Source: Bdellovibrionales bacterium
Lineage (GTDB): Bacteria; Bdellovibrionota; Bdellovibrionia; Bdellovibrionales; UBA1609
NCBI GenBank assembly: GCA_963692945.1
Contig: OY843585.1
Coordinates: forward strand, 1,140,001 to 1,172,000
DNA length: 32,000 nt
Direction: 5' to 3'
Of the stretch, positions 1,946-27,161 are shown piece after piece. The notes below the pieces were generated by a model. That model made no database searches and was not told where the DNA came from. It worked only from the letters and a program-made list of their open reading frames with translations. Numbering within the stretch: the first letter of the stretch is position 1; every line of letters begins with the position of its first letter. A program made the position numbers and the translations under genes.

Positions 1946-2074
1946 TCTTTAATGATTAGATAAACTTTAGGAATTATCAAATTCTTTTAGTAAAATTTTG
2001 ATCTTTAAAAAGAAAATCTTAGACTTTAGTGTTTAAAACACTCCTATGCTTTTAATCTCATTATGAGATTCTTT

Positions 2075-2387
2075 CAAAACTCTAGTGCGAAAAACAGAAG
2101 TTTTTCTCTAGTTCAAACATAAACCTGTTAAACAACTCTTATTTTAATGAGATTTGAAGAAAATTTTATAAGCGAAAAACCAGTAGTTTTCCTATATGTA
2201 AAAACCAGCAGTGCGAAAACCAGTAGGTTTTCTCTAGTTCAAACAATAAGCCTGTTAAGTAACTCTTATTTTAACGAGATTTGAAGAGCATCCCTCTTGC
2301 GATGAAAAGCTCGTTAAAATAAGAGTAGGAAATACTTTTTTGAACTAGAGTTTTGTAAAAGAGCATTAGAACTGAACTAGAGTTTTG
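2075..2387. mobile_element. MITE-like hairpin repeat element (long copy with an internal ~126-bp duplication)
   Basis: Begins CAAAACTCTAG (2075-2085) and ends CTAGAGTTTTG (2377-2387), 11-bp perfect terminal inverted repeats. Internal unit gtgcgaaaa..ctctagttcaaaca..cctgttaa..aactcttattttaa.gagatttgaaga occurs at 2085-2160 and 2211-2286. Perfect 17-bp stem 2262-2278 / 2310-2326. Homologous to 4220-4432. Confidence 0.5.
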
Positions 2388-2712
2388 TTCTATGACTATT
2401 TTTTAGTTTTTTAATCTCTGCTTTAGACAAACCTGTCACTTCCGAAATCAAAGAGATATCAAGTTTTTTCTTTAACATATTCAAAATAACTTTTTGAAAC
2501 TTTTGTTGTCCTTCTTGTCGTCCTTTTTGTTGTCCTTCTTGTCGTCCTTTTTGAAACCCTTTTTTAAACCCTTTTTCAGACTCTTCTGGAAACCATTCTC
2601 GTTGTGCTTCTTCAAACCCTTTTTGACGCTCTTTTATCCAAGTTTGAAACCCTTTTTTAAGAGTTTCTTGAAACTCTTTATCCATAGCTTGTTCTTTTAT
2701 AATCTTTTTCAT
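2377..2712 (-). CDS. Stand-alone Rpn C-terminal-tail protein (RpnS-like), 111 aa
   Basis: The C-terminal ~35 aa (VILNMLKKKLDISLISEVTGLSKAEIKKLKNSH) are nearly identical to the C-terminus of the adjacent Rpn protein. GAGGAGG lies upstream of the ATG. The Lys/Gln/Gly/Glu-rich linker contains a tandem duplication (QKGRQEGQ x2). The last codons run into the MITE-like element. Confidence 0.7.
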   Translation of the reverse strand: MKKIIKEQAMDKEFQETLKKGFQTWIKERQKGFEEAQREWFPEESEKGFKKGFQKGRQEGQQKGRQEGQQKFQKVILNMLKKKLDISLISEVTGLSKAEIKKLKNSHRTKL

Positions 2713-2767
2713 ATTTATTATAGTTCCTCCTCTTTTTAAAAATCCCTCTTTGAAGACATTTAAAAAA

Positions 2768-3034
2768 TCACTTATGACTATTTTTTAGTTTTTTAATCTC
2801 TGCTTTAGACAAACCTGTCACTTCCGAAATCAAAGAGATATCAAGTTTTTTCTTCAACATATTCAAAATAACTTCTTTAAACTCTTGTCGTTTTTCTCGT
2901 CGTCCCTCTCGTCGTCCTTTTTTAAACCCTTCTTGTCGTCCCCTAGTTTGTCCGTTTTTAAACCATTTTTTTCGTTCTTCCTGTCGTCCTTCTTCCCGAG
3001 CTCGTTCTCTTACAATCTCTCTCATATTTATCAT
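2768..3034 (-). CDS. Stand-alone Rpn C-terminal-tail protein (RpnS-like), 88 aa
   Basis: MINMREIVRERAREEG... parallels Rpn residues MINMRKIIRERALEEG... It has the same C-terminal module and the same upstream aaaagaggaggaact-ATG. Confidence 0.7.
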   Translation of the reverse strand: MINMREIVRERAREEGRQEERKKWFKNGQTRGRQEGFKKGRREGRREKRQEFKEVILNMLKKKLDISLISEVTGLSKAEIKKLKNSHK

Positions 3035-3080
3035 AGTTCCTCCTCTTTTTAAAAGCCCCTCTTTGAAGACATTTAAAAAA

Positions 3081-3275
3081 TCACTTATGACTATTTTTTA
3101 GTTTTTTAATCTCTGCTTTAGACAAACCTGTCACTTCCGCAATCAAAGAGATATCAAGTTTTTTCTTTAACATATTCAAAATAACTTTTTGAAACTTTTG
3201 TTGTCCCTTATCTTGCCCTTTTTGAAACCCCTCTTCCAGAGCTCGTTCTCTTATAATCTTTCTCATATTTATCAT
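3081..3275 (-). CDS. Possible internally initiated small isoform of Rpn (RpnS-like, 64 aa)
   Basis: In-frame ATG at 3273-3275 is preceded, inside the Rpn coding sequence, by GAGGAGG (complement of 3281-3287). This is the same SD-ATG arrangement used by the two stand-alone tail genes. Confidence 0.45.
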   Translation of the reverse strand: MINMRKIIRERALEEGFQKGQDKGQQKFQKVILNMLKKKLDISLIAEVTGLSKAEIKKLKNSHK

Positions 3276-4124
3276 AGTTCCTCCTCTTTTTAAAAATCCC
3301 TCTTTTACCATCAAATCCTCAATCTTCTTCCAATTCTTTGCACTCAACCCCGTGTTCTGTTTCAGATACTCAGTAATTCCTAACAAAACATCCTCTTTTC
3401 GTTGACCTTCTATACTTTTAAACAACTCCTTAAAATCTAAAACAATCTCACGCAACTTAGAATCTGTTGGGTTCTTTAAACTCCATATTTCCCTCAATAA
3501 ACTCAACGCCCCTCGTCCCTTAAACCTTTTATCCTTACCAGCTCTTTGGACTCTTGGAGCATTCACATCTATTACTTTCAACTTGTAGTTTAACATGTTT
3601 TTTCTTGTTTCTAAAGGAATTTTAAAAAGAGAATCTCTAAAATTCTCTTCTAAAAAAGAAGATTTCCACTTCATATTTTGTCTCCCATGATAAAACAAAA
3701 CAGGAATTATAGGTTGTAAATAACCAAGATGGTCTTTATTGTGTCGGTGAATTAACACTTGATAATCTAAGAGTTGATGGAAGAGGTTTTTATCATAATA
3801 GGACTTATGTTCTAGAAGAATAAAGAGGGTGAGTTTCATTTTAGGGATTTTTTTAAAAGGAACGGAGAAAATAAGATCAGCTCTTTTATCTTCAAAACTA
3901 TCTTTTTCTATTTTTAGTTTTTTCCAATCATAAGCTTTCATTTCTTTTTTTGAAAAGATGAGTTCAAAGAGTTCTGTAGCTAAGTCAGGATTAGAATAGA
4001 AGAGTTTAAAAAACTTATCATGACTAAAAGCTGTGTTTTTCTTATGAATTCCTTTTTTAAATTCTAAGGTTTGATTTTTAAGATTTAAAGCTTGCTTAGT
4101 TTTTTTAGACATTGTTTTTCTCAA
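3081..4124 (-). CDS. Rpn family recombination-promoting nuclease / putative transposase (YhgA-like PD-(D/E)XK)
   Basis: 347 aa. Nuclease core pattern KRADLIFSV ... LTLFILLEHKSYYDKNLFHQLLDY (D ... E-x-K), typical of the Rpn/Transposase_31 family. The C-terminal tail is repeated in the two downstream genes. Confidence 0.8.
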   Translation of the reverse strand: MRKTMSKKTKQALNLKNQTLEFKKGIHKKNTAFSHDKFFKLFYSNPDLATELFELIFSKKEMKAYDWKKLKIEKDSFEDKRADLIFSVPFKKIPKMKLTLFILLEHKSYYDKNLFHQLLDYQVLIHRHNKDHLGYLQPIIPVLFYHGRQNMKWKSSFLEENFRDSLFKIPLETRKNMLNYKLKVIDVNAPRVQRAGKDKRFKGRGALSLLREIWSLKNPTDSKLREIVLDFKELFKSIEGQRKEDVLLGITEYLKQNTGLSAKNWKKIEDLMVKEGFLKRGGTMINMRKIIRERALEEGFQKGQDKGQQKFQKVILNMLKKKLDISLIAEVTGLSKAEIKKLKNSHK

Positions 4125-4219
4125 TATCTATATAAAGCAAAAAGAGAGTATGAATAAACTATCAAGAAGCAGGGCTTTTTTTCATTTTTTATTTGTAAAT
4201 TCGGATACTGTCGTTTTTA

Positions 4220-4432
4220 CAAAACTCTAGTGTATGAACTTTCATTTTCACGAGATTTGAAGAACAAAGCCCTTCATGTGAAAAACAGCAGTTTTTTTAT
4301 AAGCGAAAAACCAGTAGTTTTTCTCTAGTTCGCTATAAGTAAGAACTCTTTTCTTTTTAGGTGTTTGAGGAGCTCCTACGACGAAAATCTCCTAAAAAGA
4401 AAAGAGTATTAGAACTGAACTAGAGTTTTGTA
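4220..4432. mobile_element. MITE-like hairpin repeat element (short copy)
   Basis: Same 11-bp termini as the 2075-2387 copy (CAAAACTCTAG 4220-4230 ... CTAGAGTTTTG 4422-4432), flanked by TA on both sides. Perfect 17-bp stem 4345-4361 / 4391-4407. Shares ataagcgaaaaaccagtagtttt and attagaactgaactagagttttg with the left copy. It abuts the cpaF-like stop codon. Confidence 0.5.
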
Positions 4433-4433
4433 A

Positions 4434-5552
4434 TCAAGCGGCTTGTTTCTTAACAAAAAACTTCCTAGAAAATGAAAGTTGATTGTCTTCAATCTCTTCC
4501 ATAAAAGAGGGAATAACTCCGGTTGCTTTCAAACGACCTTCTAATTTACCATCTGGTTTTTTCACAAGCCGACCAATAGAAAATAAGTTTTGCACTTGAT
4601 ACACACCATTTTCAACACCTAAGACTTCAGAAACTTCACTCACTCTACGAGAACCATCAGAAAAACGAGAAATCTGAACAATCAAATCAATAGCCGATGC
4701 AATTTGAAACTGAAGAGCTTTTTCACTCAACTGTGAATCAGCTCCTTGAGCAAGAGCTTCTAGTCGGACAATGGCATCTTGAGAACTATTGGCATGAACT
4801 GTTCCTAAACATCCTTTATGCCCTGTATTCATTGCATTGATCAACTCTAAGGCCTCACCCCCACGAACTTCTCCCACAATAATACGATCAGGACGAAGTC
4901 TTAAGCTACTTTTAACTAAATCTCTAATAGTCACTTCTCCCTTACCTTGAGCATTAGCCATTTTCGTTTCAAAAAAAACAACATGTTCATATTCCACTTT
5001 TAATTCACTAGCATCTTCTATCACAATAACTCTTTGTCCTTTAGGAATATAAGAACACATCGCCCCTAGTAGTGTTGTTTTACCAGAACCTGTCCCACCA
5101 CTGATTAATATATTCTTACCTAAAGCACTTGCAACTTTTAAAAATTCAGCCACTGTTCCTGTTAAAGTTCCAAAACGAATGTAATCTTCAAAAGTAAATT
5201 GATCGGAAGAAAATTTACGAATCGCTAAAGTTGTTCCTTTACGAGAGCAAGGAGGTATAACAGCATGAATACGATAACCATTAGGCAATCTAGCATCCAA
5301 GCGAGGATGCTCTTCTGTGATCTGACGACCTACACTTTGAGCAATATTTGTGATGGCAGCAAATAAAGCATCTTCATCTGAAAAAGCCGCGTCTGTTTTT
5401 TGAATCTTTCCAGCCACTTCCACCCATATTTCCTGATAACTATTGACCATAACTTCAGTCACTTTTTCATCTTTTAAAAGATGCCAAATAGGTTGAAGAA
5501 AACCTTTTACAGCGGATTCAAAAACACTTGTGTTTTTTTCTTTTTCGTCCAT
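4434..5552 (-). CDS. cpaF: CpaF/TadA-family type II/IV secretion system ATPase
   Basis: Walker A GGTGSGKTTLL. LRPDRIIVGEVRGGEALELINAMNTGHKGCLGTVHANS matches the CpaF/VirB11-type hexameric ATPase signature. RLDARLPNGYRIHAVIPP..GTTLAIRKF. Confidence 0.85.
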   Translation of the reverse strand: MDEKEKNTSVFESAVKGFLQPIWHLLKDEKVTEVMVNSYQEIWVEVAGKIQKTDAAFSDEDALFAAITNIAQSVGRQITEEHPRLDARLPNGYRIHAVIPPCSRKGTTLAIRKFSSDQFTFEDYIRFGTLTGTVAEFLKVASALGKNILISGGTGSGKTTLLGAMCSYIPKGQRVIVIEDASELKVEYEHVVFFETKMANAQGKGEVTIRDLVKSSLRLRPDRIIVGEVRGGEALELINAMNTGHKGCLGTVHANSSQDAIVRLEALAQGADSQLSEKALQFQIASAIDLIVQISRFSDGSRRVSEVSEVLGVENGVYQVQNLFSIGRLVKKPDGKLEGRLKATGVIPSFMEEIEDNQLSFSRKFFVKKQAA

Positions 5553-12833: not shown

Positions 12834-13664
12834 CTAAACAATTATTTCTTTTTCAAATAGATCAAAATTAGATTTATCAATTTTTTTAGGTGTTTGAGAA
12901 TGAGGAGGCTTGCCTTGTATCTGAATAAATGACGAAGAGTTTTTAAAATTACTTGGAAAAATAGCTAGACAATCTCTCCCAGTATAACAGGATCTATATA
13001 CTATACCTGAAATTCCTGAAGATCTAACCAGTTGACCAAAAATTTGTGAATTAGAGGGAAGATCAAAGTCTTTTGTGTGACGTATCCAGTTTTTATTCAT
13101 TATGGATTGATGAATTTCTTTTCTATTTTGAAGAATTCTTAGCTTCGGCTTTAATTTCAATTTCTTACTTTTTTCTTTTAGAGTTTTAGAAAATTTAAAT
13201 TTCTTTAATATTTTAGTAATCCTTGTTAGTTTTTTATAACCTCTTATATCAAATATAAAATCTAGTTTCCCACTAATAAAAATAGAAGAAAAAGAATCTT
13301 TTGTTGATAAAGATAAATCGTAAGTAGACATCTCATTAGAGTTTTTAGAAGATATTTTAGAAAGTAACCCTTCACTTTCAGCTGTTTCTTTGTCCTTTGC
13401 AATGTACAATGCTGAAAACTGAGGAATTAAATTAGGACTCATGTTTCCCATATTAAAACGCCCACCAGACTCTCTTATACTTCCAAGGGTACACAAGGGA
13501 TGATTGCTATAACGCCATTTAACAACTCTACACCAATCCTTAAAAATAAAATCATCCGTAGATTCTGAAAAAAGACTCTCTTTAATATCTTCTAAATGAG
13601 ATTCTCGTTGTTTTGCAAGTTCAAAGTATTCTTCCAAATAGTAGTCACGATGTTTTTCAAGCAT
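12834..13664 (-). CDS. RES-domain toxin (RES family NAD+ phosphorylase-like)
   Basis: R-E-S landmarks: ESGGRFNMGN, ALYIAKDKETAESE, GIVYRS. Located downstream of an Xre/ParS/MbcA-type antitoxin gene. Longer than typical RES proteins because of a Lys-rich insertion. Confidence 0.7.
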   Translation of the reverse strand: MLEKHRDYYLEEYFELAKQRESHLEDIKESLFSESTDDFIFKDWCRVVKWRYSNHPLCTLGSIRESGGRFNMGNMSPNLIPQFSALYIAKDKETAESEGLLSKISSKNSNEMSTYDLSLSTKDSFSSIFISGKLDFIFDIRGYKKLTRITKILKKFKFSKTLKEKSKKLKLKPKLRILQNRKEIHQSIMNKNWIRHTKDFDLPSNSQIFGQLVRSSGISGIVYRSCYTGRDCLAIFPSNFKNSSSFIQIQGKPPHSQTPKKIDKSNFDLFEKEIIV

Positions 13665-13728
13665 ACTTTTAGTGTATTTAATTACGTTAGAATCTGTTTG
13701 TTCTAAGAGATATTCTTTCTGTAATTCT

Positions 13729-14133
13729 TTAATTGGATTTACTTTTTTTTAAGGGTTTGTTTTCAGAAAGAGCATTTCTAATAAATTTAATCAATGCTTT
13801 AGATCTACCAATACGAATCATATCTTTTGGTGTTCGTTCCCCTAAAAAAGGATTAGGAGTAAAAAACCAACGCATAGTTTTATCTTCATCTTCAAAAAAA
13901 TTAGCAACCAAGTTGATAGCTGTAGCCCATTCCCTCATTCGTTCTTTTAGTTCTTGAGGCATTTTTTCATCGTATCTAATAGAAGATAATTTCACTCCTG
14001 AAGATTGAGAAACTTCTTGTTTTTTTAATTCTAGTATTTTAACAACTGCTTCTCCTTTTACATTTTTCCCTTTAAATAAGGAAAGCCTATCTTTAGGGAG
14101 AGTGAATGCTTTATTTGATTGAAATTGAACCAT
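13729..14133 (-). CDS. Xre/MbcA/ParS-type antitoxin (DUF2384-like toxin-binding domain)
   Basis: C-terminal pattern MRWFFTPNPFLGERTPKDMIRIGRSKALIKFI, typical of RES-partner antitoxins. AAGGAGG SD upstream. Confidence 0.7.
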   Translation of the reverse strand: MVQFQSNKAFTLPKDRLSLFKGKNVKGEAVVKILELKKQEVSQSSGVKLSSIRYDEKMPQELKERMREWATAINLVANFFEDEDKTMRWFFTPNPFLGERTPKDMIRIGRSKALIKFIRNALSENKPLKKSKSN

Positions 14134-14423: not shown

Positions 14424-17400
14424 CTAATATATTTTAGTATTTAACCAATTCTGTATACATTGACATATTTCATCTTGATGAATTGGTAATAAGGCAGTTT
14501 TAGATTTTACTAATTGAATCAAACTATCAGCTATCTTTTTTGGATTTTCAGATCTTCCAAAGGATAATTGATTCAAAGTTTCTTTCACAATGACCTCCTG
14601 ACTAGAAAGTAAGATAGGAGAATTTTGAAATAGATCAATAAAAAAATCTGAAGTGACACAAATAATACTTTGTAAATTTGAAACAGGCCCTAAAAAGAAT
14701 AATCCTCTTTGAAAACCAAAATGGTTAACTCCATATTGTCCTTCTTTTAATAAAAACATAAGTATCTTATGATCTATTGGTATATAAGTTTGATTTAATT
14801 TTACTAATTCAGCTTTAAATTGGATAGACTTATTAACATCAATAATTTGTTGATTTTCAAAATATCTAACCATATCAAATAGTCTAACTCCTAAAGATTC
14901 AAAATCATTTTTAGCAAGTGTTCTAGAAACTTCATCCTCACATAAAAGAATTATGTTTTTTTCTTCTTTAACCACCAATAATGGATCACAAAATTCTTTT
15001 CCCAGAAGTTTCTCCATTTCATTTATTTTTTCTCTGCTTATTATCAATGAATCACTTATTGATTTAATTTGACAATGATCTTTAGCCCATTGTTTCACTT
15101 TTTTAAGGAAGTCTAAATTTTCTACTATTTTTTCTGGTGAAGTGAAAGATTTTTTTGGCTGCTCATTTTCTCCACCAGGAATAAGCATTAATAACCCATC
15201 TTTAGCATGTAATTTCCTACTTTGTATAAGGTTTTCTAAAGAATCTATTGTAGATTGACATATATAAAGATTAAATTTGTTATTACTTCTCTCTAGATAT
15301 TGTTCTAATTTTATTCCATGAAGTGTAATAAGAGATGATAAATCTATTATCAAGTCACTATAATTATTCAAAACTGTAAGAGAGTTATTGTAATCATCTC
15401 TTTCAGGTTGAGAGGATATGAATTTATCTTTCTTAGATCTAGTTAAATATTCAATTACTTCTATAGGATGTTGATTGATAATTTTCGATATAGCTCCAAT
15501 ACCTATTTCTCCTTTTTTATAATATTGAAATACTTGATTATTCCTTTTTTCTATTTGTGAACTATCTGCCATAAATTGTCTCATCGATTGTAATATATCT
15601 TTAGCTGTTGCATTTTTTGTAATAGAGATGGATTTCATAAAATTATTTGAAGGAAAATTTATATTCATATTGCTTGGAATATCCTGATATTTATAAATAT
15701 ATTTACTTTTTATATCTACGATTTTATACTTTTCGTTTCCAATATCAATTACATCTCCCTTCTTTTTTCCTAATAATTTTTTAGATAACTCATGCCCTGG
15801 AGTAAATATATCTGCTGACTCCTCAATAATAATTTCTCTTTCTGTTTGATTATTTATTTCTTTAATTTTTACATAATAATCTAAATCTACTTTATCACTT
15901 TGAAATAAAATAGAATTTTGCTCTTTAATTTGACCATAAACAGTAACCAATTCAAAATATAATCTTTGTGCTTCTAAGCTTGAAGGATGATTCTTGATAT
16001 TTTGATATTGAATTTTTAAAGCTTTTTTAAAATCCCGTATATGTATATAAGCTATTGAAAGATAGTTTATTTGCTTAACAGATAATTGTTCTAAATTAGT
16101 TATAGAATCTAAAAGTTTTTTAGCTTCTATAACTTTTTGTTCCCTTATATAAGCAAAGATTAATTGTAATTTTATTATGCTATTGTCAGGATTTAAATGA
16201 ATAAATTGTTTACAATAATTTATTGCTTTTTTTCTATTTCCTAAAGTTTCATGGACATGAAATAAAACATCAATAGGCTCTATTCTATTAGGAAATTTTT
16301 TGAATAATTGTTTTGCTAACTCTATAGCCTTTTCATTCTTCCCATTTTCAAAATAAACATGTAATAATTTAAATTTTTCAGGGTGATTCATATTGTTTTC
16401 TGTGATTTTTTCTAATAAAGATTCACACATCCTATACATCTTTGAAAAATACAACTCAAGCACAAGTTGTTGAATATCTCTGATATGAACATTATTTTTT
16501 TTAGACAAACTAATTGCTTCTTTAAGATAGTTATTTTTTTGCTCGATATTTTTTTTATGACTCTCAATTTTAGATTTTAAGATTAAAGTTAATATATTGC
16601 CTCTATCATCTTCAAAAAAAGCATCTAATATCTTTTCTGCTTCATTAAAATCTCCAAAATTGATTAATCTAAATATTAAATATCTTTTTGCTTCGATTCT
16701 ATTATCTTGACTTATAGATTCATCAATAATTATTTTTCTTAATAATTTTTTCCCTTTTTCTTTGTTATCTGTAAAAAAATACAAATCTGCTAATTTTAAA
16801 TTCATTTCAAATGTTTTTTCTTTAATTTTTTCTAATATAATAATACTTTCTTCAATTTTTCCTATTACTTCTAAAAATCTACATAACTCTATTTTTAAGT
16901 CTTTATTTTCAGGAAAAATATCAATTCCCTTATTGATAACTTGAATAGCCTTATCTATCTGTCCATTAATTTCAAGAGATATAGCATAATGTATATACCA
17001 ATATGGATGAAACTTTTTTAATTCATCAAAATCTCTATTTGTAGTTAACTTTTTATAAATATCTATAATTTTTTCTAATTCAGGAATTACACTATCTGGA
17101 GCACATCTTGATGTAAATACCTTATATTTCTCTAAAATGATTTGTAAAGACATTTCTGCATATTCAGATTCTACAATATGATCTTTATTTTTACACGAAA
17201 GTTTTAACCATTTTTCAGCTTGCTCATACTGTTTTTTTCTTATACTAATATGAGCTAATGCATGAATCATCCTATCATTTTCTTTCAAGTCTGCTGGAAT
17301 GCTATCAATAATTTCTTCTAAAGTTTTATCCTCTCTATCCTGAATTTGTACATTAATAATGTAAGCATTTATATTTAACGGATTTAATTCTTTAACTTTT

Positions 17401-18227
17401 TCTATATATTGTTTTGCTTTTTCTATATCATTTCTAATTAGATAACCCATAGCACAATTATAATTAGCATCTTCATCTTCTTTATTAAACTGTAATGCAC
17501 CTATCAATAATTTACATCCTTCCATATTTTCATTCATTTTTATTTTTGCACACCCCATATTAGTTATGACTCTATATTTTTCTTTATCATCTAATATATG
17601 CCATTCTTCTGCTTTAAGTTTTTCTAACTGCTTAAAGGCTGTTTGTGGTTTGTTATCTATTAAATCTTTTATTCTGTTAAGTTCAGAATGAGAACTATTA
17701 CTCTTAATTAAGTTTAGATCTAATTCACTATTCAAATTATATTGAACAGCATTATATTTAGATTTTTTTATGAATTTATCAATACCATAAAATTTTTGAT
17801 ATATTGTAGGATGTTTTTCAAATAAATCTTTTATTTCATCCCAACTATGAATTTCTACAGAAAAAAGATCTTGATTTCGATGTTTTTCAGAAATGATTCT
17901 TGCTTCTTTTTGTATATTTGCATCTCTTTTACAAGTTGTTGCTAAAATAAATTTTTTTAAACTAGGGTCAAAATTTTTTGCTTTTTCTACTTCTTTAAGT
18001 AACTCTTCTTTCTTAATTTTTGAGGTAACCTCTCTTTTTTTGCACTGTATTCCTATATCTTGATCTTGCACAAAAATATCCACACCATCTTGAGATTGAC
18101 CTTGTCTTCCATTTATTTGAGTTTGCTCTCCATACTCTGCTTTATATAACTCCAAACATATTTTTTCAAAAAGACCTCCATCACTAGGAGGAGGAATTTG
18201 TAAGTTAAACAAAAAAAAGCCCTTCAT
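14424..18227 (-). CDS. Large multidomain protein: N-terminal Mrr/restriction-endonuclease-like domain, long TPR-like helical repeat array, GreA/B C-terminal-like domain, C-terminal PIN-like domain
   Basis: aa 15-145: GGLFEKICLELY...GQSQDGVDIFV...IGIQCKKRE...FILATTCK (Mrr_cat-like D...QxK pattern). aa ~190-770: repeated helical-hairpin TPR-like units. aa ~778-842: VDLDYYVKIKE...FTPGHELSKKLLGKKKGDVIDIGNEKYKIVDI (GreA/B C-terminal pattern). aa ~955-1125: LIIDLSSLITL ... QSTIDSLE ... ILLCEDEVS (acidic residues spaced as in PIN folds). Confidence 0.75.
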   Translation of the reverse strand: MKGFFLFNLQIPPPSDGGLFEKICLELYKAEYGEQTQINGRQGQSQDGVDIFVQDQDIGIQCKKREVTSKIKKEELLKEVEKAKNFDPSLKKFILATTCKRDANIQKEARIISEKHRNQDLFSVEIHSWDEIKDLFEKHPTIYQKFYGIDKFIKKSKYNAVQYNLNSELDLNLIKSNSSHSELNRIKDLIDNKPQTAFKQLEKLKAEEWHILDDKEKYRVITNMGCAKIKMNENMEGCKLLIGALQFNKEDEDANYNCAMGYLIRNDIEKAKQYIEKVKELNPLNINAYIINVQIQDREDKTLEEIIDSIPADLKENDRMIHALAHISIRKKQYEQAEKWLKLSCKNKDHIVESEYAEMSLQIILEKYKVFTSRCAPDSVIPELEKIIDIYKKLTTNRDFDELKKFHPYWYIHYAISLEINGQIDKAIQVINKGIDIFPENKDLKIELCRFLEVIGKIEESIIILEKIKEKTFEMNLKLADLYFFTDNKEKGKKLLRKIIIDESISQDNRIEAKRYLIFRLINFGDFNEAEKILDAFFEDDRGNILTLILKSKIESHKKNIEQKNNYLKEAISLSKKNNVHIRDIQQLVLELYFSKMYRMCESLLEKITENNMNHPEKFKLLHVYFENGKNEKAIELAKQLFKKFPNRIEPIDVLFHVHETLGNRKKAINYCKQFIHLNPDNSIIKLQLIFAYIREQKVIEAKKLLDSITNLEQLSVKQINYLSIAYIHIRDFKKALKIQYQNIKNHPSSLEAQRLYFELVTVYGQIKEQNSILFQSDKVDLDYYVKIKEINNQTEREIIIEESADIFTPGHELSKKLLGKKKGDVIDIGNEKYKIVDIKSKYIYKYQDIPSNMNINFPSNNFMKSISITKNATAKDILQSMRQFMADSSQIEKRNNQVFQYYKKGEIGIGAISKIINQHPIEVIEYLTRSKKDKFISSQPERDDYNNSLTVLNNYSDLIIDLSSLITLHGIKLEQYLERSNNKFNLYICQSTIDSLENLIQSRKLHAKDGLLMLIPGGENEQPKKSFTSPEKIVENLDFLKKVKQWAKDHCQIKSISDSLIISREKINEMEKLLGKEFCDPLLVVKEEKNIILLCEDEVSRTLAKNDFESLGVRLFDMVRYFENQQIIDVNKSIQFKAELVKLNQTYIPIDHKILMFLLKEGQYGVNHFGFQRGLFFLGPVSNLQSIICVTSDFFIDLFQNSPILLSSQEVIVKETLNQLSFGRSENPKKIADSLIQLVKSKTALLPIHQDEICQCIQNWLNTKIY

Positions 18228-18770: not shown

Positions 18771-18806
18771 TTGATTTTACAAGAGAATTACTGTATAAAT
18801 GAAGTT

Positions 18807-19700
18807 ATGAAAAAACAATTACTTACAACCAAACAAAAGCTTTCTGCTTTATTTGCTTCTGGTGATTTTATAAGAATCGACGATGCTAAAAATATACTAA
18901 GACTATCAAGGGTTCAAACTTCTAAAACTCTATCAAAATGGGCAAAACAAGGTTGGTTGAGGCGAATCGCTTCTGGTGTTTATATACCTGTTCCTCTTGG
19001 TATTGGTGATGATGAGCAAGTTCTAGATGATCCTTGGGTTGTAATACCTGAATTATTTCCAACTTATTATATTGGAGGTTTATCAGCAGCTTCTTATTGG
19101 GAACTCACAGAACAAATTTTTAAAAATACTTTTGTTTTTACAACAAAAGCTGTTAGGTCTAACACTACTCTTATACAAGATAATACATTTATTATAAAAA
19201 ATATTAACCAACGAAAAATATTTGGTACAGAACAAATATGGAGAGGAAGAAGAAAAATTTTTATATCAGATGTTTATAAAACTTTAATTGATATGTTAGA
19301 TGACCCTTCTGTTGGAGGAGGCATTCAGCATGTCTCTTATTGTTTTGATACTTTGATAAAATTAGATTTTAAAAAGAGGCAAGGACATAGATTGTTATCA
19401 CGAAAAAGAAGTGAACTAAAAAATGGAAGATCTCTGGAATATGATGATTTAAAAGAGTCTAGACAAAAAAAAGATTTTGAAAAATTAATCACTTACTCTA
19501 AGAGGATTAATAACGGCAGTGTTTTTAAAAGGCTTGGTTTTCTTGCAGATCAAAATCCTCAATCTAGAAATCTAGCTATGGAGTGTGAAAAATATTTAAC
19601 TAAAGGATATGCTAAACTAGATCCTTCTATAAAATGTGATAAGCTTATAACAAAATGGCGATTATGGATTCCAAGTTTCTGGTTTAAAAAGAATTTATGA
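18807..19700 (+). CDS. abiEi: AbiEi-family antitoxin / transcriptional regulator (type IV TA)
   Basis: N-terminal wHTH-like segment (ILRLSRVQTSKTLSKWAKQGWLRRIASGVYIPVP). Gene order and a 4-nt overlap with an AbiEii-type NTase gene. The track ORF starts at TTG 18771; I prefer ATG 18807 (MKKQLL...). Confidence 0.7.
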   Translation: MKKQLLTTKQKLSALFASGDFIRIDDAKNILRLSRVQTSKTLSKWAKQGWLRRIASGVYIPVPLGIGDDEQVLDDPWVVIPELFPTYYIGGLSAASYWELTEQIFKNTFVFTTKAVRSNTTLIQDNTFIIKNINQRKIFGTEQIWRGRRKIFISDVYKTLIDMLDDPSVGGGIQHVSYCFDTLIKLDFKKRQGHRLLSRKRSELKNGRSLEYDDLKESRQKKDFEKLITYSKRINNGSVFKRLGFLADQNPQSRNLAMECEKYLTKGYAKLDPSIKCDKLITKWRLWIPSFWFKKNL

Positions 19701-20875
19701 TTACAAAACAAGAAATAAGAAATAGAGCTTCTATAACATCATTATATCCTCATGTTATTGAAAAAAATTATGCTTTAGCTTGGTTACTAAATGGAATTTT
19801 TAATCATAAAGAGCTTAAAGATAAATGGATATTTAAAGGTGGAACTTGTATAAAGAAATGCTACTTTGAAACTTATCGTTTTTCGGAGGATTTAGATTTT
19901 ACTTTGAAAGATAATACTCATTTTGAAGTAAGTTTTCTAAAAAATACATTTAATGATATTTCACATTGGATTGAAAAAATATCAGGCCTCTCTTTTCCAT
20001 CTGAATCCCATACATTTGAGATTGTTACCAAACAAAACGGTCAGGTAAGTGTTGAAGGAAAAATTGCTTATTCAGGCCCAGTATCTCCTCAAATTGGATT
20101 GCCAAAAATAAAACTAGATCTTACAGCGGATGAACTAATTATTTTACCTCCTGTTCAAAAACAAGTCTCTCATCCATATTCAGATCGCCCAAAAGCTGGC
20201 ATTCAGATTATGTCTTATGCTTATGAAGAGATTTTTGCAGAAAAAATTAGAGCTCTTGCTCAAAGAGCAAATCCTCGTGATCTTTATGATGTGGTCAATC
20301 TCTATAGAAATCCAAATGCAACATCAGATATATCTTTATTAAAAGATATTCTTAGGCAGAAATGTGAATATAAAAATATTTCAATTCCAAAGCTAAAAGA
20401 TGTCATGAGTAATAAAGATAAAATAAATGCTTCATGGAAGGCTATGTTAAATCATCAGCTTTCTTATTTACCTCCCGTAGAGGGTTATTGGAAATCTCTA
20501 TCTAATTTCTTTCATTGGATAGGAGGTAATGTAAAAAATGAAAAAACATCTATTCAACTAAAACAAAATGAAATTTTAGTTACAGAACAAACCCTTAACC
20601 TTCCTTTAGAACAAATAAAAATAAAAACTTTTGTTGAGAAAATTCGTTTTGCTTCTACAAATCATCTTTGTGTAAAAATTAAATATGAAGATTCAGAGCA
20701 TCTCATTGAGGCTTATGCTTTAAGCAAAAAAGAAGGAGTGCATTTTATTTTATACACTTGGAATCTTACAAAAGAACAAATTTGCACTTACCTTATAACA
20801 CGAATAAAATCTTGTGAGATAACAGATCAATCTTTTAACCCTAGATATAAAATAGATATAATACCAAAGATTTAA
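19697..20875 (+). CDS. abiEii: AbiEii/AbiGii-family nucleotidyltransferase toxin with a C-terminal WYL-like extension
   Basis: FKGGTCIKKCYFETYRFSEDLDF and EEIFAEKIRALAQRANPRDLYD match the AbiEii (DUF1814) NTase pattern. The extra ~100 aa at the C-terminus (VKIKYEDSEHLIEAYAL..FILYTWN...TYLITRIKSCEIT) are discussed in findings. Confidence 0.75.
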   Translation: MITKQEIRNRASITSLYPHVIEKNYALAWLLNGIFNHKELKDKWIFKGGTCIKKCYFETYRFSEDLDFTLKDNTHFEVSFLKNTFNDISHWIEKISGLSFPSESHTFEIVTKQNGQVSVEGKIAYSGPVSPQIGLPKIKLDLTADELIILPPVQKQVSHPYSDRPKAGIQIMSYAYEEIFAEKIRALAQRANPRDLYDVVNLYRNPNATSDISLLKDILRQKCEYKNISIPKLKDVMSNKDKINASWKAMLNHQLSYLPPVEGYWKSLSNFFHWIGGNVKNEKTSIQLKQNEILVTEQTLNLPLEQIKIKTFVEKIRFASTNHLCVKIKYEDSEHLIEAYALSKKEGVHFILYTWNLTKEQICTYLITRIKSCEITDQSFNPRYKIDIIPKI

Positions 20876-20898: not shown

Positions 20899-22887
20899 TC
20901 ACTTCCATAACTCGCTTTCTGTTTTGTATTTACCACTATAAACAGCATGGTAAGCCGAGGGGATATCTATAGGCTTCACAGGTAAACCTTTAAACTTTCC
21001 GGTTTTAAAAACCTTGATTCCTTTTTTAGAAAGACTAACACTTTGTTTAGCATATTCATTCCAACCCTTTTGAGACCAACATCTCTTATCAAGTGACTTT
21101 TTTAAAAATCTTTTAAATTCAAAAAAGGATCTGTATTTTGCCTTTATCAAAGAGAGATTTCCTGTTCCTAAAAAACAACCAAAACCCTCAAAGTCTTTTC
21201 TATAAGTTTTATCAACAGCAACAGGAATGTCTATAGGCTTCACAGGTAAACCCTTAAACTTTCCTACAGGTAATCTCGGCAAACCCTTAAACCTACCACT
21301 CTTAAAAACCGACAAACCTCCCACAGCACCCTTAGAACCCAACACAGCACCCCTCAAGCCAGAAACACCCTTAACACCAGAAGCACCTCTCACAACACCC
21401 CTCAAACCAGAAACACCCTTAACTCCAAAAGAGCCAGAAGCACCCTTAACTCCAGAAACACCCCTCAAGCCAGAAGCACCCTTAACTCCAGAAGAACCAG
21501 AAGCACCCTTAACTCCAAAAGAGCCAGAAGCACCTCTCACAGCACCACTCAAACCAGAAGCCCCCTTAACTCCAGAAAAACCAAAAGAACCCAAAGAACC
21601 CCCCAAAGAACCAAAAGAACCAACAACAGCCCAAACTTCCAAAGAAACTCTACAATACTCTTTCCACTCCACTTGACCCTTAAGGTTTAAACTTTGAACA
21701 AATTTTTTAGCCTCAACATAAGATCTATAATTTCTTTTGCGAGTTGGAATATTTCCACTTCCTAAAAAATCCCCCCAACTAAAGTTTTCATTCCTAAAGT
21801 TTTTATAATGATGATAGACAGCCCTTGGTATATCAACGGGACGCAAAGGGAGTCCTTTAAACTTCCCTTTATCAATAACCAACCGACTTCCTTTAAACTT
21901 CCCTCTACCAGTAACCAACCGACTTCCTTTAAACTTCCCTTTATCAATAACCAACCGATTTCTTTTTCTTGCCAGATCTGAATCTCTACAATAATCCCTC
22001 CACTCAAACTGATTTTTTAAATGAAGGTTTTTTACAAACAAGCATGCCTTTTTATAACTTCTATAAGAAAGGGGTTCTCGCTTTGGTTGAACAAAAAGTA
22101 AAAAGAAACTCCAACCTCTCCACTGACTTTGATAAATCTTTTGAGGGTGGTCAGGAATGTTTGTAGGTTTAACTTTTAATCCTTTAAACTTCCCTTTTTT
22201 AAAAACCTTTAAACTCTCATATTTTTTAGAAACTTCACAATACTCTTTATAAGTCTTCTTCGAATCAATGAAAACATGATGTTCATTCAATCTTCTCACC
22301 CATTTGTAAGCTATAGAAAAAGAACAATATTTTTTTTGATAAGGAGCCAGATGCTTAGAGTCTAAAAAATCCCTGTAGCCCTTCCATTCCTTTTTATAAA
22401 CGGCGTAGGGATCAAATGGAACTTTTCCTGTTGGAAATTTTGGGAGCAAGACTTGCCCATGACAGATTTCACCTTTAGCCCAGAGTTCAAATTCTTTTTT
22501 ACTTCCAAGTTTTAGTTTTCTAACATAAGCCCTTGCTTTTTTATAAGACCAAAAACCTTTTGACCTTTGATGAGGTGAAAAATGATTTGTCCCTAAAAAA
22601 TCCCCCCAACCCTTCCACTCTTTTTTATAAACAGAGTGAACAGACGAGGGTATGTCTTTTGGCTTTTTATTAGATTTAGCCCAACAAATAAACTCCCCTC
22701 TATTCTTAAACTTTTTAGATTGAATATACTTTTTAGCTTCCAAAAAACTTTTGTAGCGTAAAGATACAACATCTAATTTCTTACTAGACTTAACTAAGAC
22801 AATAGATGCTTTTTTATTCTTAAACTTTTTAGCTTGAATGTATTTTCTAGATTCTGAAAAACTTTTATAACTTTTTTGGTAAGGCAT
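20899..22887 (-). CDS. Repeat protein built from integrase-repeat-like modules with a central Gly-X-Y (collagen-like) segment
   Basis: At least 5 modules of the type YRSY.EAKKFV..L.LK...EW.EYC....GKFKGLPVKP.DIP....VYK.EWKGWGDFLG. aa 421-526 are Gly-rich with long runs of G-X-Y triplets. Confidence 0.7.
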   Translation of the reverse strand: MPYQKSYKSFSESRKYIQAKKFKNKKASIVLVKSSKKLDVVSLRYKSFLEAKKYIQSKKFKNRGEFICWAKSNKKPKDIPSSVHSVYKKEWKGWGDFLGTNHFSPHQRSKGFWSYKKARAYVRKLKLGSKKEFELWAKGEICHGQVLLPKFPTGKVPFDPYAVYKKEWKGYRDFLDSKHLAPYQKKYCSFSIAYKWVRRLNEHHVFIDSKKTYKEYCEVSKKYESLKVFKKGKFKGLKVKPTNIPDHPQKIYQSQWRGWSFFLLFVQPKREPLSYRSYKKACLFVKNLHLKNQFEWRDYCRDSDLARKRNRLVIDKGKFKGSRLVTGRGKFKGSRLVIDKGKFKGLPLRPVDIPRAVYHHYKNFRNENFSWGDFLGSGNIPTRKRNYRSYVEAKKFVQSLNLKGQVEWKEYCRVSLEVWAVVGSFGSLGGSLGSFGFSGVKGASGLSGAVRGASGSFGVKGASGSSGVKGASGLRGVSGVKGASGSFGVKGVSGLRGVVRGASGVKGVSGLRGAVLGSKGAVGGLSVFKSGRFKGLPRLPVGKFKGLPVKPIDIPVAVDKTYRKDFEGFGCFLGTGNLSLIKAKYRSFFEFKRFLKKSLDKRCWSQKGWNEYAKQSVSLSKKGIKVFKTGKFKGLPVKPIDIPSAYHAVYSGKYKTESELWK

Positions 22888-23070: not shown

Positions 23071-23916
23071 TTAGTAAGCTCCACTAAAAGCCGAAGTATG
23101 ATCTGAGTCACATAAACCATAACCTACTGAAAAAAACCAACGCTTTGTAAAACCAACTTTATCACCTATTAGGAATCCTCTTTGATCAGCTGAGGCTCTC
23201 CAATGAGGTTGTCCAGTAGAATATTTAGGACTTTTTGTGTGTGTAATAGAAATACACACTACTCCTCTACCGATATCAGCTACTCCTGTGCATACGAGTC
23301 CATCTTTATATGACTGACCTGATGAAAAAGTCTTGCCAGAACTAACTGCGTGAAATATTGATGAGTAAGACTGCCTTGTTCTAACTCTATATAGACCATA
23401 ATTATCACATTTAAAACCTAACTTTTGAAAAGAGTTACAACCCCTTACCCCGTTTAATGCTAAACAATTCTGTATGGCTTTACTTGCGTTGATTGTAGAG
23501 ATTTTTATTACTCTTTTTACAGCGCTTTCTTGATATTTATTATACGCAGTTATCACAATAGAAGCTAATAGTCCTAAAATTCCAACTACGATTAAAACTT
23601 CTATAAAAGAAAATCCTTTTTTATTTTTACTTAGTTTTTTCTCCTCTGCTTTCAATTCTTTTATGGAGTAATCTTCATATTTTCTATAAGTTTCTTTGCT
23701 TAGCTCGCTACAGTTTCTAAGTCCTTTACCTGTTTCAATAGATTTATAATTCCTACATTTCATTTTTATACTATCTAAAGAACAAGTAAAACTTTCATCA
23801 TTCTTTTTTAAATTTTTACAAAGCTGGTCTCTATGAAGAACATTTTCTCTATAAATTATAAAGACTTTTAGCTCATGTAGATTTGTCCATTTCATTCTTG
23901 TTTTTCTTTTACTCAT
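23071..23916 (-). CDS. Pilin-like protein with a prepilin-type motif ~100 aa from the annotated N-terminus
   Basis: KKG|FSFIEVLIVVGILGLLASIVITAYNKYQESA at aa 99-130. No in-frame ATG lies close to the motif. An in-frame TTG at 23653-23655 would give a normal 14-aa leader (MKAEEKKLSKNKKG). Confidence 0.65.
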   Translation of the reverse strand: MSKRKTRMKWTNLHELKVFIIYRENVLHRDQLCKNLKKNDESFTCSLDSIKMKCRNYKSIETGKGLRNCSELSKETYRKYEDYSIKELKAEEKKLSKNKKGFSFIEVLIVVGILGLLASIVITAYNKYQESAVKRVIKISTINASKAIQNCLALNGVRGCNSFQKLGFKCDNYGLYRVRTRQSYSSIFHAVSSGKTFSSGQSYKDGLVCTGVADIGRGVVCISITHTKSPKYSTGQPHWRASADQRGFLIGDKVGFTKRWFFSVGYGLCDSDHTSAFSGAY

Positions 23917-23938
23917 TACCTAAGAAGTAAGGGCTTCC

Positions 23939-23964
23939 TTTTAAAGAAGCCCTTTAATTTATAA
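23939..23964 (-). terminator. Hairpin downstream of pilin gene 24012..24656 (candidate intrinsic terminator)
   Basis: aagggcttc (23939-23947) / gaagccctt (23956-23964), 9-bp perfect stem with an 8-nt loop, followed on the minus strand by acttctt. Confidence 0.5.
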
Positions 23965-24011
23965 AATTTCATTATTTACATACATAACACTAACTAATAG
24001 ATATGAACTTA

Positions 24012-24656
24012 TTAAGGACTACATACTCCACTACTACACTGAACAGTTGTTTTGGATGTTGTTCCTGTTCCACAATTAGTTGGTGAAGCCACGCTAGGAG
24101 CTGTTCCAGTGCAAACAGGTGGAGTGCAACCAGATGGGCATGAAGCAAGAACATGAGTTCTACAAGTAACTAGTGTTGAACTACCTCCAGCAGTGTAAGA
24201 AGAAGGAGCTAAGTCAATACAAGCTGCCCCACCAGGTGATCCAGTTCTTTGCACTGGTACATTACTTGTAGTATCTATAGACCAACAACCTTCATTTCCA
24301 TCACCATCATTTCCAACATATACTTCAAAACAAACATTATTAGCTGTTCCATTATCAACAGCAATTGTTGCTCCAGACTGAGATTTTACTCCTATCTCTG
24401 TTATAGAATTACACCCATCAAAACTACCTAAGACCCTACAAGTATTATAAGATTTCTCTATTAAATTTAAACTTGATGCTACCACTCCTCTCCTAGCACT
24501 ATCTTGATATTTTTGATACGCAGGAATAGCAACAGCAGCTAACACTCCAATTATGGCGACAACCACAAGCAATTCTATTAAGGAAAACCCTTTTTTCCTC
24601 TTTTCTTTTTTGTTCTTATTTAAAGGCTTGAACCAGCCTATTTTTTTAAAGTCCAT
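24012..24656 (-). CDS. Type IV pilin (candidate major pilin of the second cluster)
   Basis: Leader ...KEKRKKG|FSLIELLVVVAIIGVLAAVAIPAYQKYQDSA. AAGGAGG SD. Cys-rich C-terminal region. Hairpin terminator downstream. Confidence 0.85.
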   Translation of the reverse strand: MDFKKIGWFKPLNKNKKEKRKKGFSLIELLVVVAIIGVLAAVAIPAYQKYQDSARRGVVASSLNLIEKSYNTCRVLGSFDGCNSITEIGVKSQSGATIAVDNGTANNVCFEVYVGNDGDGNEGCWSIDTTSNVPVQRTGSPGGAACIDLAPSSYTAGGSSTLVTCRTHVLASCPSGCTPPVCTGTAPSVASPTNCGTGTTSKTTVQCSSGVCSP

Positions 24657-25427: not shown

Positions 25428-27161
25428 TTACTTCAAAAATCTTTTTGGGAAACTTATAGGAAATTGATGTCCTTCAAGATAAAAAGATATAGCCTTTTCT
25501 TCTTGATCAGGGAAAATTTGAGCAAAATTTCTTTTTGAGATGTAGAAGATATTTCTAGCAAAAAGTTTTTTCTCGTCATTACAATTTCTTAACTCCATTT
25601 CTGAGGTGGTAGTCGTAAGTCCTAACACAGATTTAGGCATAGGGCTGTAAGATATAGGTGAAGATACGATTTGTAGCATTTGCAATGCAGAGCCTTTCCT
25701 AGTGTCAACAATTTCAGTTAACCCTCCTGCATGAATATCACCACTTAAAATAAAAATCTCTTTTCCTTTTCTTGCTAGTTCTGTCAGAACCTCCATTATT
25801 TCATTTAAAGACTTCCTATTTGAATCAGAGCTTAGTCCATCTTCCATATCATCACTTAACTCAGGTAGTTCAGGTATGGCTGCAATGCCTTTAGGAATGT
25901 ATGAAAGTATAATCAGTATGAGTATAATAGAACCAATGATAGGAAGCAGTATAACAAAGATAAAATAGAGTATAGAAAAAATGGGAATTGGTATTTTTCC
26001 GCATAAACTACAATTAAGAATTGATACTAGTAATGGGCTAAGAAAACATAAAGCAGATATAGGCAACCATAGTTTCCATTTTTGAATTACATACCAAGGC
26101 TTATTTTTCTCAACATCCGTTTTAAGTTTGAATATGAATCTAAAAAGTTCAGATATTCTTTTATCACCAAGAAAATTAGTTCTAAAAGCTACAACGGGAC
26201 TTACAAAAAAGATTTTTTTAATATGATCTGGAGTTTGTTTTAAGTTATCCAATATTTTGTTTTTGTGTTCTTCTGTCCATATTTGATTTTTAGATGAATT
26301 TCTTTCTGATCTAAAATCAGCCAATACAAACTTCATATCTCCCCAGTTTAAAATAGAAGAAAATTTATGAATTGGTTTTGGATTTCTAGAAGCTTGATAA
26401 ATTTTAAAGGATTCTTTTGCAGTTTCAAAAAACTTCCACCAATTCTTTTTAAACCCTGATTCTTCTTTAGAGTTGAAAGACTCAAGACGACTTCCCCAAC
26501 CATCCGTTATATCATGGTCATCCCACATAGTTACACTTAGTGTAGAAGCTAAAACTTTTCTATAACTAATATTTCCCCAATATTTTTGATATTGTTCAAT
26601 AAATCTTTCCTGTAGAGATTTTTTAATTTCACCATCTGCATCTTCTTGTTTAAGTTTATTTATAAATTCTTTTTCAATATCATCATTATAGATTTGATCC
26701 CCTCCTAAAACGAGAAGTCTAACATTTTTATCTTTTTTTAAATGTTCAGAAAGTTTTCTCCACATTTCCCAACCTTCACCAGCACTTCCATTTTTTTGCT
26801 TAAAAGGATTATGGCAACTCATAAGTATAAAAGATTTTTCAATATCATTTTTTCCTAAAATTTGAAAACGACAATCTTCTTCTGTTAAACCTCCCTCTAA
26901 GTCTAAAGATTGTCCATTAGATAAAAATTTGTATTTATATAATCTATTATCTTCTAAATTTTCAAATTTAAAACTAAACAATCTATAAAGTTCATTTTTC
27001 ACCTGTGATTCTTTAGAATCAATTTTTTTATCTTCATATAAAATCTGACATTCTATTTTTTCTATTTCAGATTTGTGTGGAAGAGCAATAAATACCTCAA
27101 CTCCTGTTTCACCATGAGGTCCCAAAAACGGCCCAATTATTTTAACTTTATTTTTATTCAT
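25428..27161 (-). CDS. PhoD-like metallophosphatase interrupted by a transmembrane insertion
   Basis: Motifs in order: LMSCHNPF, VLGGDQIYNDD, MWDDHDITDGWGS, ILSGDIHAGG. aa ~362-424 are strongly hydrophobic (LWLPISALCFLSPLLVSILNCSL ... IPIPIFSILYFIFVILLPIIGSIILILIILSYI). ATGA overlap with the upstream gene. Confidence 0.7.
   Translation of the reverse strand: MNKNKVKIIGPFLGPHGETGVEVFIALPHKSEIEKIECQILYEDKKIDSKESQVKNELYRLFSFKFENLEDNRLYKYKFLSNGQSLDLEGGLTEEDCRFQILGKNDIEKSFILMSCHNPFKQKNGSAGEGWEMWRKLSEHLKKDKNVRLLVLGGDQIYNDDIEKEFINKLKQEDADGEIKKSLQERFIEQYQKYWGNISYRKVLASTLSVTMWDDHDITDGWGSRLESFNSKEESGFKKNWWKFFETAKESFKIYQASRNPKPIHKFSSILNWGDMKFVLADFRSERNSSKNQIWTEEHKNKILDNLKQTPDHIKKIFFVSPVVAFRTNFLGDKRISELFRFIFKLKTDVEKNKPWYVIQKWKLWLPISALCFLSPLLVSILNCSLCGKIPIPIFSILYFIFVILLPIIGSIILILIILSYIPKGIAAIPELPELSDDMEDGLSSDSNRKSLNEIMEVLTELARKGKEIFILSGDIHAGGLTEIVDTRKGSALQMLQIVSSPISYSPMPKSVLGLTTTTSEMELRNCNDEKKLFARNIFYISKRNFAQIFPDQEEKAISFYLEGHQFPISFPKRFLK

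Follow-up and report, generated by a model that had tools for sequence, protein, structure and literature searches.

Rpn loci encode a toxic nuclease (RpnL) that is neutralised by a small protein (RpnS) translated from an internal start of the same gene, and plasmid-borne Rpn confers phage defence (Zhong et al. 2023, PMC10400941). RpnS also occurs as the product of a separate downstream gene (rpnESs, i.e., ypaA, and rpnCSs) derived from the tail of the gene upstream, and loss of rpnSs via fusion of the N-terminal domain to the rpnSs region was reported (PMC10400941). In the 32,000-nucleotide (nt) stretch analyzed here (contig OY843585.1 of a Bdellovibrionales bacterium; hereafter termed the window), an Rpn gene (rpnL) is followed by two stand-alone copies of its own tail (tail genes 2 and 3; Table 1). 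We consider it fairly likely that this locus constitutes an Rpn toxin-antitoxin/abortive-infection gene accompanied by two rpnSs-type duplicates, which are length-mismatched and would probably be poor inhibitors originating from the birth and death of tails.

The first helix of the described tails contains repeats of four amino acids (aa) that vary among tails. RpnCS with one added repeat fails to block RpnCL unless RpnCL carries the same addition (PMC10400941), and according to a commentary complexes do not form when the repeat numbers are mismatched (PMC10400984). In Escherichia coli K-12, ypaA starts 12 nt past the rpnE stop codon behind AAAGGAGAG, and its product corresponds to the RpnE tail extended by exactly one tetrad (KLEG). 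The gene is annotated as a pseudogene in this strain; expression of the RpnESs/YpaA protein was detected in E. coli (PMC10400941).

The window locus shares with rpnE-ypaA and rpnC-rpnCSs (i) an Rpn gene of the PD-(D/E)XK type with an in-frame internal Shine-Dalgarno (SD) sequence and ATG, (ii) small genes directly downstream on the same strand that possess their own SD sequence and duplicate the gene's own tail, and (iii), with respect to rpnE-ypaA, a copy set apart from the intragenic tail by complete 4-aa repeats (one in case of YpaA) and is of local duplication origin. It differs from rpnE-ypaA in the number of stand-alone copies (two instead of one), in the far larger length gaps (six tetrads and, for the third copy, 47 residues), in a duplicated unit that takes in ~30 nt of upstream coding sequence including the full SD sequence, in the substitute start codon and flanking-repeat C-terminus of the third copy, and in the host, a Bdellovibrionales-like genome of 30 % G+C. 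An earlier note on this stretch had interpreted the tails as antitoxins provided as extra gene copies. The part that stands is their nature as RpnS-type tails; the arrangement is not new, since rpnESs and rpnCSs have been published (PMC10400941). The design principle, including a differing repeat number in the stand-alone copy, is thus already described, and the window locus is a two-copy version of rpnE-ypaA. It represents a clear non-enterobacterial case of the Rpn gene-within-a-gene toxin-antitoxin design and bears on a question left by Zhong et al., namely the role of downstream rpnSs and the generation of tetrad repeats and tail copies.

The Rpn nuclease gene and its putative internal start

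Judged from sequence comparison, RpnL is an Rpn-family nuclease, as the earlier note had proposed. The protein matches PF04754 (Transposase_31/YhgA-like; E=4.7e-23, 82 bits with a cutoff of 21, residues 35-201), and the Rpn family model TIGR01784 covers residues 35-342 with a score barely over the cutoff (52.2 versus 52.1 bits). Among 273 homologues, the top ones are named Rpn family nuclease and originate from metagenome-assembled genomes (MAGs) of Bdellovibrionales/Oligoflexia; the closest proteins share 50-56 % identity and, where named, are Rpn family recombination-promoting nucleases. The putative catalytic residues D79, E101 and K103 (numbering of the 343-aa version) are invariant in 28 aligned homologues. 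In the AlphaFold2 (AF2) model of full-length RpnL (predicted local distance difference test, pLDDT, 80), the alpha/beta nuclease domain is confident; Foldseek searches with this model yielded weak, non-significant matches to restriction endonucleases and XisH, which are of PD-(D/E)XK type. A profile of full-length RpnL had zero matches among PDB sequences, none of the PADLOC models for Rpn matched in the window, and a BLAST-type search of the window found no second nuclease domain anywhere in the 32 kb. Two starts are possible for rpnL, TTG 4124 (347 aa) or ATG 4112 (3081-4112, 343 aa), the latter being supported by identity of the 343-aa version to a database protein (P0001). The SD-like sequence ahead of ATG 4112 is weak (GAGAAA), compared to GAGGAGG at all three tails.

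The putative internal start is directly visible in the sequence: GAGGAGG (3280-3286), a 4-nt spacer and an in-frame ATG (3273-3275) open the last 64 codons of rpnL up to its stop codon, just as stated in the earlier note. Related loci were collected from one genome per species (76 loci, L001-L076, chiefly of Bdellovibrionales MAGs, with a small number of Nitrospirales origin), and at the DNA level an SD-like motif precedes the equivalent methionine in 78 of 81 full-length relatives. In the alignment of the 28 homologues, G277 and G278 are invariant and M280 is nearly so (GG-x-M). AF2 predicts one long (279-316) and two short helices (321-328 and 332-342) in the RpnL tail, such that the long helix begins at the internal start. 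Domain order, the conserved internal start and this predicted set of one long and two short helices agree with RpnA-RpnAS and RpnP2 (7TH0), whereas sequence identity to E. coli RpnA is low (NF007361, the RpnA model, 35 bits versus a cutoff of 583).

In 7TH0 (E. coli RpnA-S), the tail is a three-helix unit whose long first helix forms the dimer interface. Comparison of the tail model by Foldseek places 7TH0 at rank 10, with a TM score of 0.62 with respect to the target, 35 % identity across 40 columns and a non-significant E=1.5; all Foldseek E-values exceed 0.5, as expected because the domain comprises only 40 residues. At the sequence level, the tail did not match 7TH0 in the PDB search. Helix-turn-helix (HTH) domains of resolvases rank first in the Foldseek list, the tail profile (alignment A4) matches residues 112-182 of gamma-delta resolvase (C-terminal end of the E-helix plus HTH; E=7e-5), and a PADLOC model for a putative invertase matches the tail at 2e-4. 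This agrees with the HHpred relation to HTH motifs noted in PMC10400941. The likeness to gamma-delta/Tn3 serine recombinases concerns their C-terminal HTH region and extends no further than the small HTH and the adjoining end of the long helix; a serine-recombinase catalytic domain is lacking in the window protein.

By analogy with the E. coli systems, RpnL would combine a PD-(D/E)XK DNA endonuclease, toxic with DNA cleavage and SOS induction, with a C-terminal tail of helices. RpnS would be this tail translated on its own from the internal SD-ATG, and would bind and silence RpnL. We infer that the 64-aa intragenic RpnS is the cognate antitoxin.

Table 1 Positions of the features of the rpn locus within the window (TRF, Tandem Repeats Finder; ORF, open reading frame)
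Feature	Position	Strand	Evidence
rpnL, full-length Rpn nuclease gene	3081..4124	minus	ORF list, PF04754, TIGR01784, homologues, AF2
PD-(D/E)XK (YhgA-like) nuclease domain, D...E-H-K motif (RADLIFS / LLEHKS)	3522..4022	minus	Pfam match, alignment
Putative internal translation start in rpnL frame: AGAGGAGG, AACT spacer, ATG	3273..3287	minus	sequence, conservation
Intragenic RpnS, 64 aa, presumed cognate antitoxin; linker from start to NML core 33 aa	3081..3275	minus	sequence, AF2
Tail gene 2 (rpnSs-like), 88 aa, linker 57 aa	2768..3034	minus	ORF, tblastn, TIGR01784, alignments
SD sequence GAGGAGG of tail gene 2, 4 nt ahead of ATG 3034	3039..3045	minus	sequence; 5' block shares 94 % identity with that of the intragenic tail
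12/36-nt repeat tract, linker of tail 2	2894..2989	minus	TRF; repeat family D1
Tail gene 3, 111 aa, linker ~80 aa with the ATA codon as starting point	2377..2712	minus	ORF, alignments, TIGR01784, AF2
SD sequence GAGGAGG of tail gene 3, 13 nt ahead of the usable ATG 2712	2726..2732	minus	sequence
12-nt (4-aa) repeat tract, linker of tail 3	2501..2594	minus	TRF; repeat family D1
3' core of unit 3 (VILNMLKKKLDISLISEVTGLSKAEIKKLKNSH)	2389..2505	minus	tblastn; equivalents at 2771-2887 and 3084-3200
Upstream flank element, located between rpn and the gene for the T2SSE-type ATPase; inverted ACTAGAGTTTTGTAA copies at its ends; long hairpin 4345-4407	4217..4433		
Downstream flank element(s), direct repeat of the upstream one; the same 15-mer at 2072, 2344 and 2376; hairpin 2262-2326	2072..2390		

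The two stand-alone tail genes

Sequence comparison indicates that both small ORFs are RpnS-type tails. The intragenic tail retrieves them by tblastn with E-values around 1e-25 (1.7e-25 for tail 2, 9e-25 for the other), and both match the C-terminal end of TIGR01784 (tail 2, E=5e-7; tail 3, E=5e-8). At the DNA level, 3086-3224 and 2391-2529 are 95 % identical over 139 nt (blastn, E=7e-59), and 2773-3204 and 2391-2891 align with 77 % identity over 501 nt. A three-way alignment resolves each unit into a 66-nt block around SD sequence and start (88-94 % identity), a linker that is not alignable among the three units, and a 100-nt 3' core (98-99 % identity). The linkers contain period-12 arrays, one coinciding with the tail-2 tract and one at 2503-2594; a period-24 repeat (2501-2553, 2.2 copies, 100 % match) is located within the latter. 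Compared to the intragenic tail, the linker of tail 2 is longer by 24 residues (six tetrads) and that of tail 3 by 47 residues, the latter being out of tetrad register. The earlier note's description of two downstream tail ORFs with near-identical 3' ends and linkers expanded by tandem duplications, among them a 24-nt one, is borne out by these results. Its statement that the SD-ATG-tail unit is repeated twice applies to tail 2, while unit 3 has kept the SD sequence and carries ATA (2719-2721) in place of the conserved ATG; here, the ORF opens three codons later. Unit 3 furthermore ends in NSH-RTKL* versus NSHK* elsewhere, its last codons being contributed by the flanking repeat to which it is joined.

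For tail 3, AF2 (pLDDT 73) predicts helices at 2-40, 43-81, 86-93 and 97-110 with a kink at FPEE, i.e., the same topology as in the intragenic tail, but with a first helix of ~80 residues that contains a proline kink. The ATG-to-stop frames of 88 and 111 codons both stay open in the 30 % G+C genome. In precomputed annotation, the tails of relatives carry PF27070. Matches of the tails to FliH (NCBIfam), Yae1_N and DUF4355 were dismissed as compositional (E/K/Q/G-rich helices). Two plus-strand ORFs antisense to the tails (2494-2739, 81 aa; 2885-3052, 55 aa) are mirror ORFs of the 12-nt repeats with L/S/F-rich, low-complexity products and are probably not genes.

Tandem duplication followed by repeat expansion is the likeliest origin of the extra tails. 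The duplicated unit would extend from ~30 nt 5' of the internal ATG through 16 nt beyond the stop codon, and subsequent slippage of the 12-nt repeats would have produced the longer first helix. Both tail-to-tail junctions are identical (CATAAGTGATTTTTTAAATGTCTTC|AAAGAGGG), which implies that the unit was re-duplicated after the first junction had formed.

All three tails are probably expressed from one rpn-tail2-tail3 transcript, since the spacers between the tails (46-55 nt) contain no significant hairpin (z-scores -0.6 and -0.9), GAGGAGG precedes every tail, and the putative operon is delimited by long hairpins (z -2.9 after the upstream ATPase gene, z -3.4 after tail 3).

Extra tails in related genomes and their possible role

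Tail copies were counted for 79 distinct full-length Rpn genes, the majority of them from related Bdellovibrionales MAGs, including that of the window; the 130-aa cut-off of the counting script missed tail 3 of the window, which was therefore set by hand from one to two. Fifty genes have no extra downstream tail, 23 have one, five have two (window, L004, L007, L014 and L015) and one has four (L004). Hence, the comparison of tail-gene copy number in related genomes suggested in the earlier note yields extra tails in 29 of 79 Rpn genes (~37 %), with up to four per gene. Tail-only duplication is thus frequent within a single lineage of Bdellovibrionales MAGs that have small genomes of low G+C, and the window architecture is a recurrent feature of the clade, since extra tails were found across related MAGs. 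In all 34 comparisons between an extra tail and the tail of the adjacent gene (one pair entered twice, as two loci overlap), the linker difference is a multiple of 4 aa; lengths are unequal in 27 and equal in seven, and one extra tail (L011) is identical to that of the adjacent gene. Truncation affects 7 of 41 extra tails in relatives, and an SD sequence is present in 11 and lacking in 27 of 38.

Many of the stand-alone tails in L002-L015 lack an SD sequence and start ~10 nt past the upstream stop codon (junction TTTTAAGATTCTCAATGCTT-ATG), unlike the junction in the window, which suggests either translational coupling or poor expression. Dense rpn arrays, containing as many as five full genes within 9 kb, occur in L002, L004, L006, L008, L012-L015 (MAG CBDBBW01), L055 and L061; in L004, the gene from 6068 precedes four stand-alone tails. 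The array tails comprise two core types (KKKLDIS... and KEKADIAF...) that are shuffled with linkers, L002 having identical linkers on different cores. Tail number varies among paralogues in the relatives, which also show whole-gene and partial-gene duplications, comparable to the described Rpn gene arrays of tandem-duplication origin (PMC10400941, SI Fig. S1B), while in the window only the tail unit has been duplicated. Rpn genes 42-49 % identical to that of the window were observed in five Nitrospirales MAG loci (L039, L042, L062, L069 and L075), which suggests horizontal transfer, possibly between co-resident bacteria, as several bin names (RHO, APA, CAR) resemble labels of host-associated samples. 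A scan of Joint Genome Institute (JGI) metagenomes with the Rpn protein retrieved no close relatives, and exact-match look-ups of the Rpn protein (from either start) and of the adjacent ATPase gave no record.

With respect to function, tails 2 and 3 are probably poor inhibitors of RpnL, since the linkers of the three tails (33, 57 and ~80 aa) are mismatched. Birth and death at the tail, of which tails 2 and 3 would be products, fits the relatives, because some of their extra tails are truncated and many are devoid of an SD sequence; such products may also act as spare tails. If mismatched tails fail to inhibit their neighbour, they are not simple dosage back-ups. One nuclease accompanied by tails with 33, 57 and ~80 linker residues also offers a natural test set for the rule of repeat-number specificity and for the role of stand-alone RpnS genes.

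Several points weigh against the interpretation as poorly inhibiting duplicates. The mismatch rule was shown experimentally only for RpnC with one repeat more or less, and may not extend to this lineage or to a surplus of 6-12 tetrads. The two extra ORFs are uninterrupted, each with a perfect SD sequence and a core of 98-99 % identity, which suggests recent origin, gene conversion or selection, so that some function may exist. PF14261 (DUF4351) did not match the tails even at E<=10; this label holds for stand-alone RpnS only 'in some species' (PMC10400941). Finally, scans for promoter and terminator consensus sequences performed no better than on shuffled sequences and are hence uninformative.

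Among the alternatives, it appears somewhat unlikely that the extra tails are non-functional by-products, i.e., recent neutral duplicates from repeat-driven unequal recombination that are now decaying. Such decay would account for the start codon change and the replaced C-terminus of tail 3, for the truncated (7 of 41) and SD-less (27 of 38) extra tails of relatives, and for the pseudogene annotation of ypaA in E. coli K-12. It is less easily reconciled with frames of 88 and 111 codons that remain open at 30 % G+C, with the perfect SD sequence in both tails, with extra tails in ~37 % of the clade's Rpn genes, and with the detection of the YpaA protein in E. coli.

The arrangement of one toxin and three antitoxins that the earlier note had envisaged, in which all tail products neutralise the nuclease and thereby raise or buffer the antitoxin dose, is unlikely. 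Its premise of RpnS-type tails is sound, and it is consistent with the same-strand position of the tails directly downstream, each behind GAGGAGG, with 98-99 % identical cores carrying the two short helices, with equal linker lengths in 7 of 34 extra tails of relatives (identical in L011), and with expression of RpnESs in E. coli. Neutralisation by all three tails becomes doubtful, however, in view of linkers of 33, 57 and ~80 aa, when a single extra tetrad abolishes neutralisation and mismatch blocks the complex (PMC10400941, PMC10400984). This rule weakens the three-antitoxin interpretation, as do the mismatched linkers in 27 of 34 cases in relatives and, for tail 3, the loss of tetrad register and of the conserved start codon.

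One may likewise speculate, with little probability, that the extra tails constitute a reservoir of alternative specificity modules. Homologous recombination of two units, either at their conserved 5' blocks or at their 3' cores, would then remove the DNA in between, place a different tail in frame on the nuclease domain and reset the specificity of toxin and antitoxin together. Hypervariable linkers are flanked by blocks of 66 nt (88-94 % identity) and 100 nt (98-99 % identity), and the sequence 5' of tails 2 and 3 is in frame with the KRGGT coding block; therefore, a recombination event between units would leave the nuclease domain joined to another tail. Published fusions of the N-terminal domain to the rpnSs region, with loss of rpnSs (PMC10400941), the mosaics in relatives (same linkers on different cores in L002) and the varying tail number of paralogues point in the same direction. 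If true, this would represent cassette switching in a defence system, which in this Bdellovibrionales clade, where as many as five tails stand in succession, would be supplied by ongoing duplication of tails. However, switched variants were not seen, no close strains having been found; moreover, such recombination only deletes tails, so that duplication must refill the store, and neutral unequal crossing-over predicts the pattern equally. Neutral birth and death of duplicates and a reservoir of spare tails explain the data about equally well.

Mis-assembly of one tail as three, which the earlier note had named as an alternative, might be suspected in a repeat-rich region of low G+C, but is exceedingly improbable, given that each of the three linkers has its own sequence and length, that the array has unique ends on both the Rpn side and the distal side, and that the same architectures recur in many independently assembled chromosome-level MAGs.

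Flanking elements and genomic surroundings

The rpn cassette lies between the gene for the T2SSE-type ATPase and two type IV pilin-like genes. Both of its flanks consist of directly oriented copies of a 220-320-nt element with inverted ACTAGAGTTTTGTAA motifs at its ends, each with a long AT-rich hairpin. The ACTAGAGTTTTGTAA motif of this element occurs five times in the window (0.38 expected), exclusively in the rpn flanks, and the stop codon of tail gene 3 falls within the motif copy at 2376-2390; the motif is absent from the relatives' loci. The flank element might represent either a recombination site or a miniature inverted-repeat transposable element (MITE)-like element. A perfect 17-nt inverted pair (2344-2360 / 4215-4231) encloses the rpn cassette. 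A transposon or insertion-sequence interpretation, as may be evoked by the old 'Transposase_31' label, was not adopted, the 17-nt pair being part of the five-fold flank motif; a short target duplication around the cassette is not evident.

Direct repeats of 20-270 nt were also observed in the up- and downstream flanks of ~11 of 70 rpn blocks of relatives, e.g., in L030 (3455-3726 versus 5082-5353; 272 nt, 94 % identity), L068, L070, L073, L048 and L007. These blocks differ from the published statement that rpn genes are without flanking repeats.

Further genes of the window are consistent with the defence-rich neighbourhoods reported for rpn genes. A RES-domain protein (276 aa) is encoded beside an Xre/MbcA/ParS-type antitoxin (134 aa) at 12834-14133, forming a RES-Xre toxin-antitoxin pair. 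The region 14424-18227 encodes a TPR protein of 1267 aa, whose PIN domain is that of the PIN-TPR-GreABC system (PF20698, E=2.7e-15). At 18771-20875, genes for an AbiEi-like protein (309 aa) and an AbiEii nucleotidyltransferase (392 aa, E=2e-38) overlap by 4 nt and represent a type IV toxin-antitoxin/abortive-infection pair. A 714-aa AAA_13 ATPase (28969-31113) was matched over its full length (E=3e-120); this family is associated with defence and anticodon-nuclease-type systems. The two ORFs upstream of the AAA_13 gene (27158-28488) had zero matches in a Pfam search, and neither Rfam families nor tRNA genes were found when the window was scanned.

Prepilin N-methylation motifs are present in four ORFs which, together with the gene for a T2SSE-family ATPase, are distributed over 984-1945, 4434-5552 and 23071-24656. 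In addition, a 662-aa protein encoded at 20899-22887 displays matches to collagen triple-helix repeats and to the 'integrase repeat unit', and an opposite-strand ORF of 149 aa (21227-21676) is located inside its gene.

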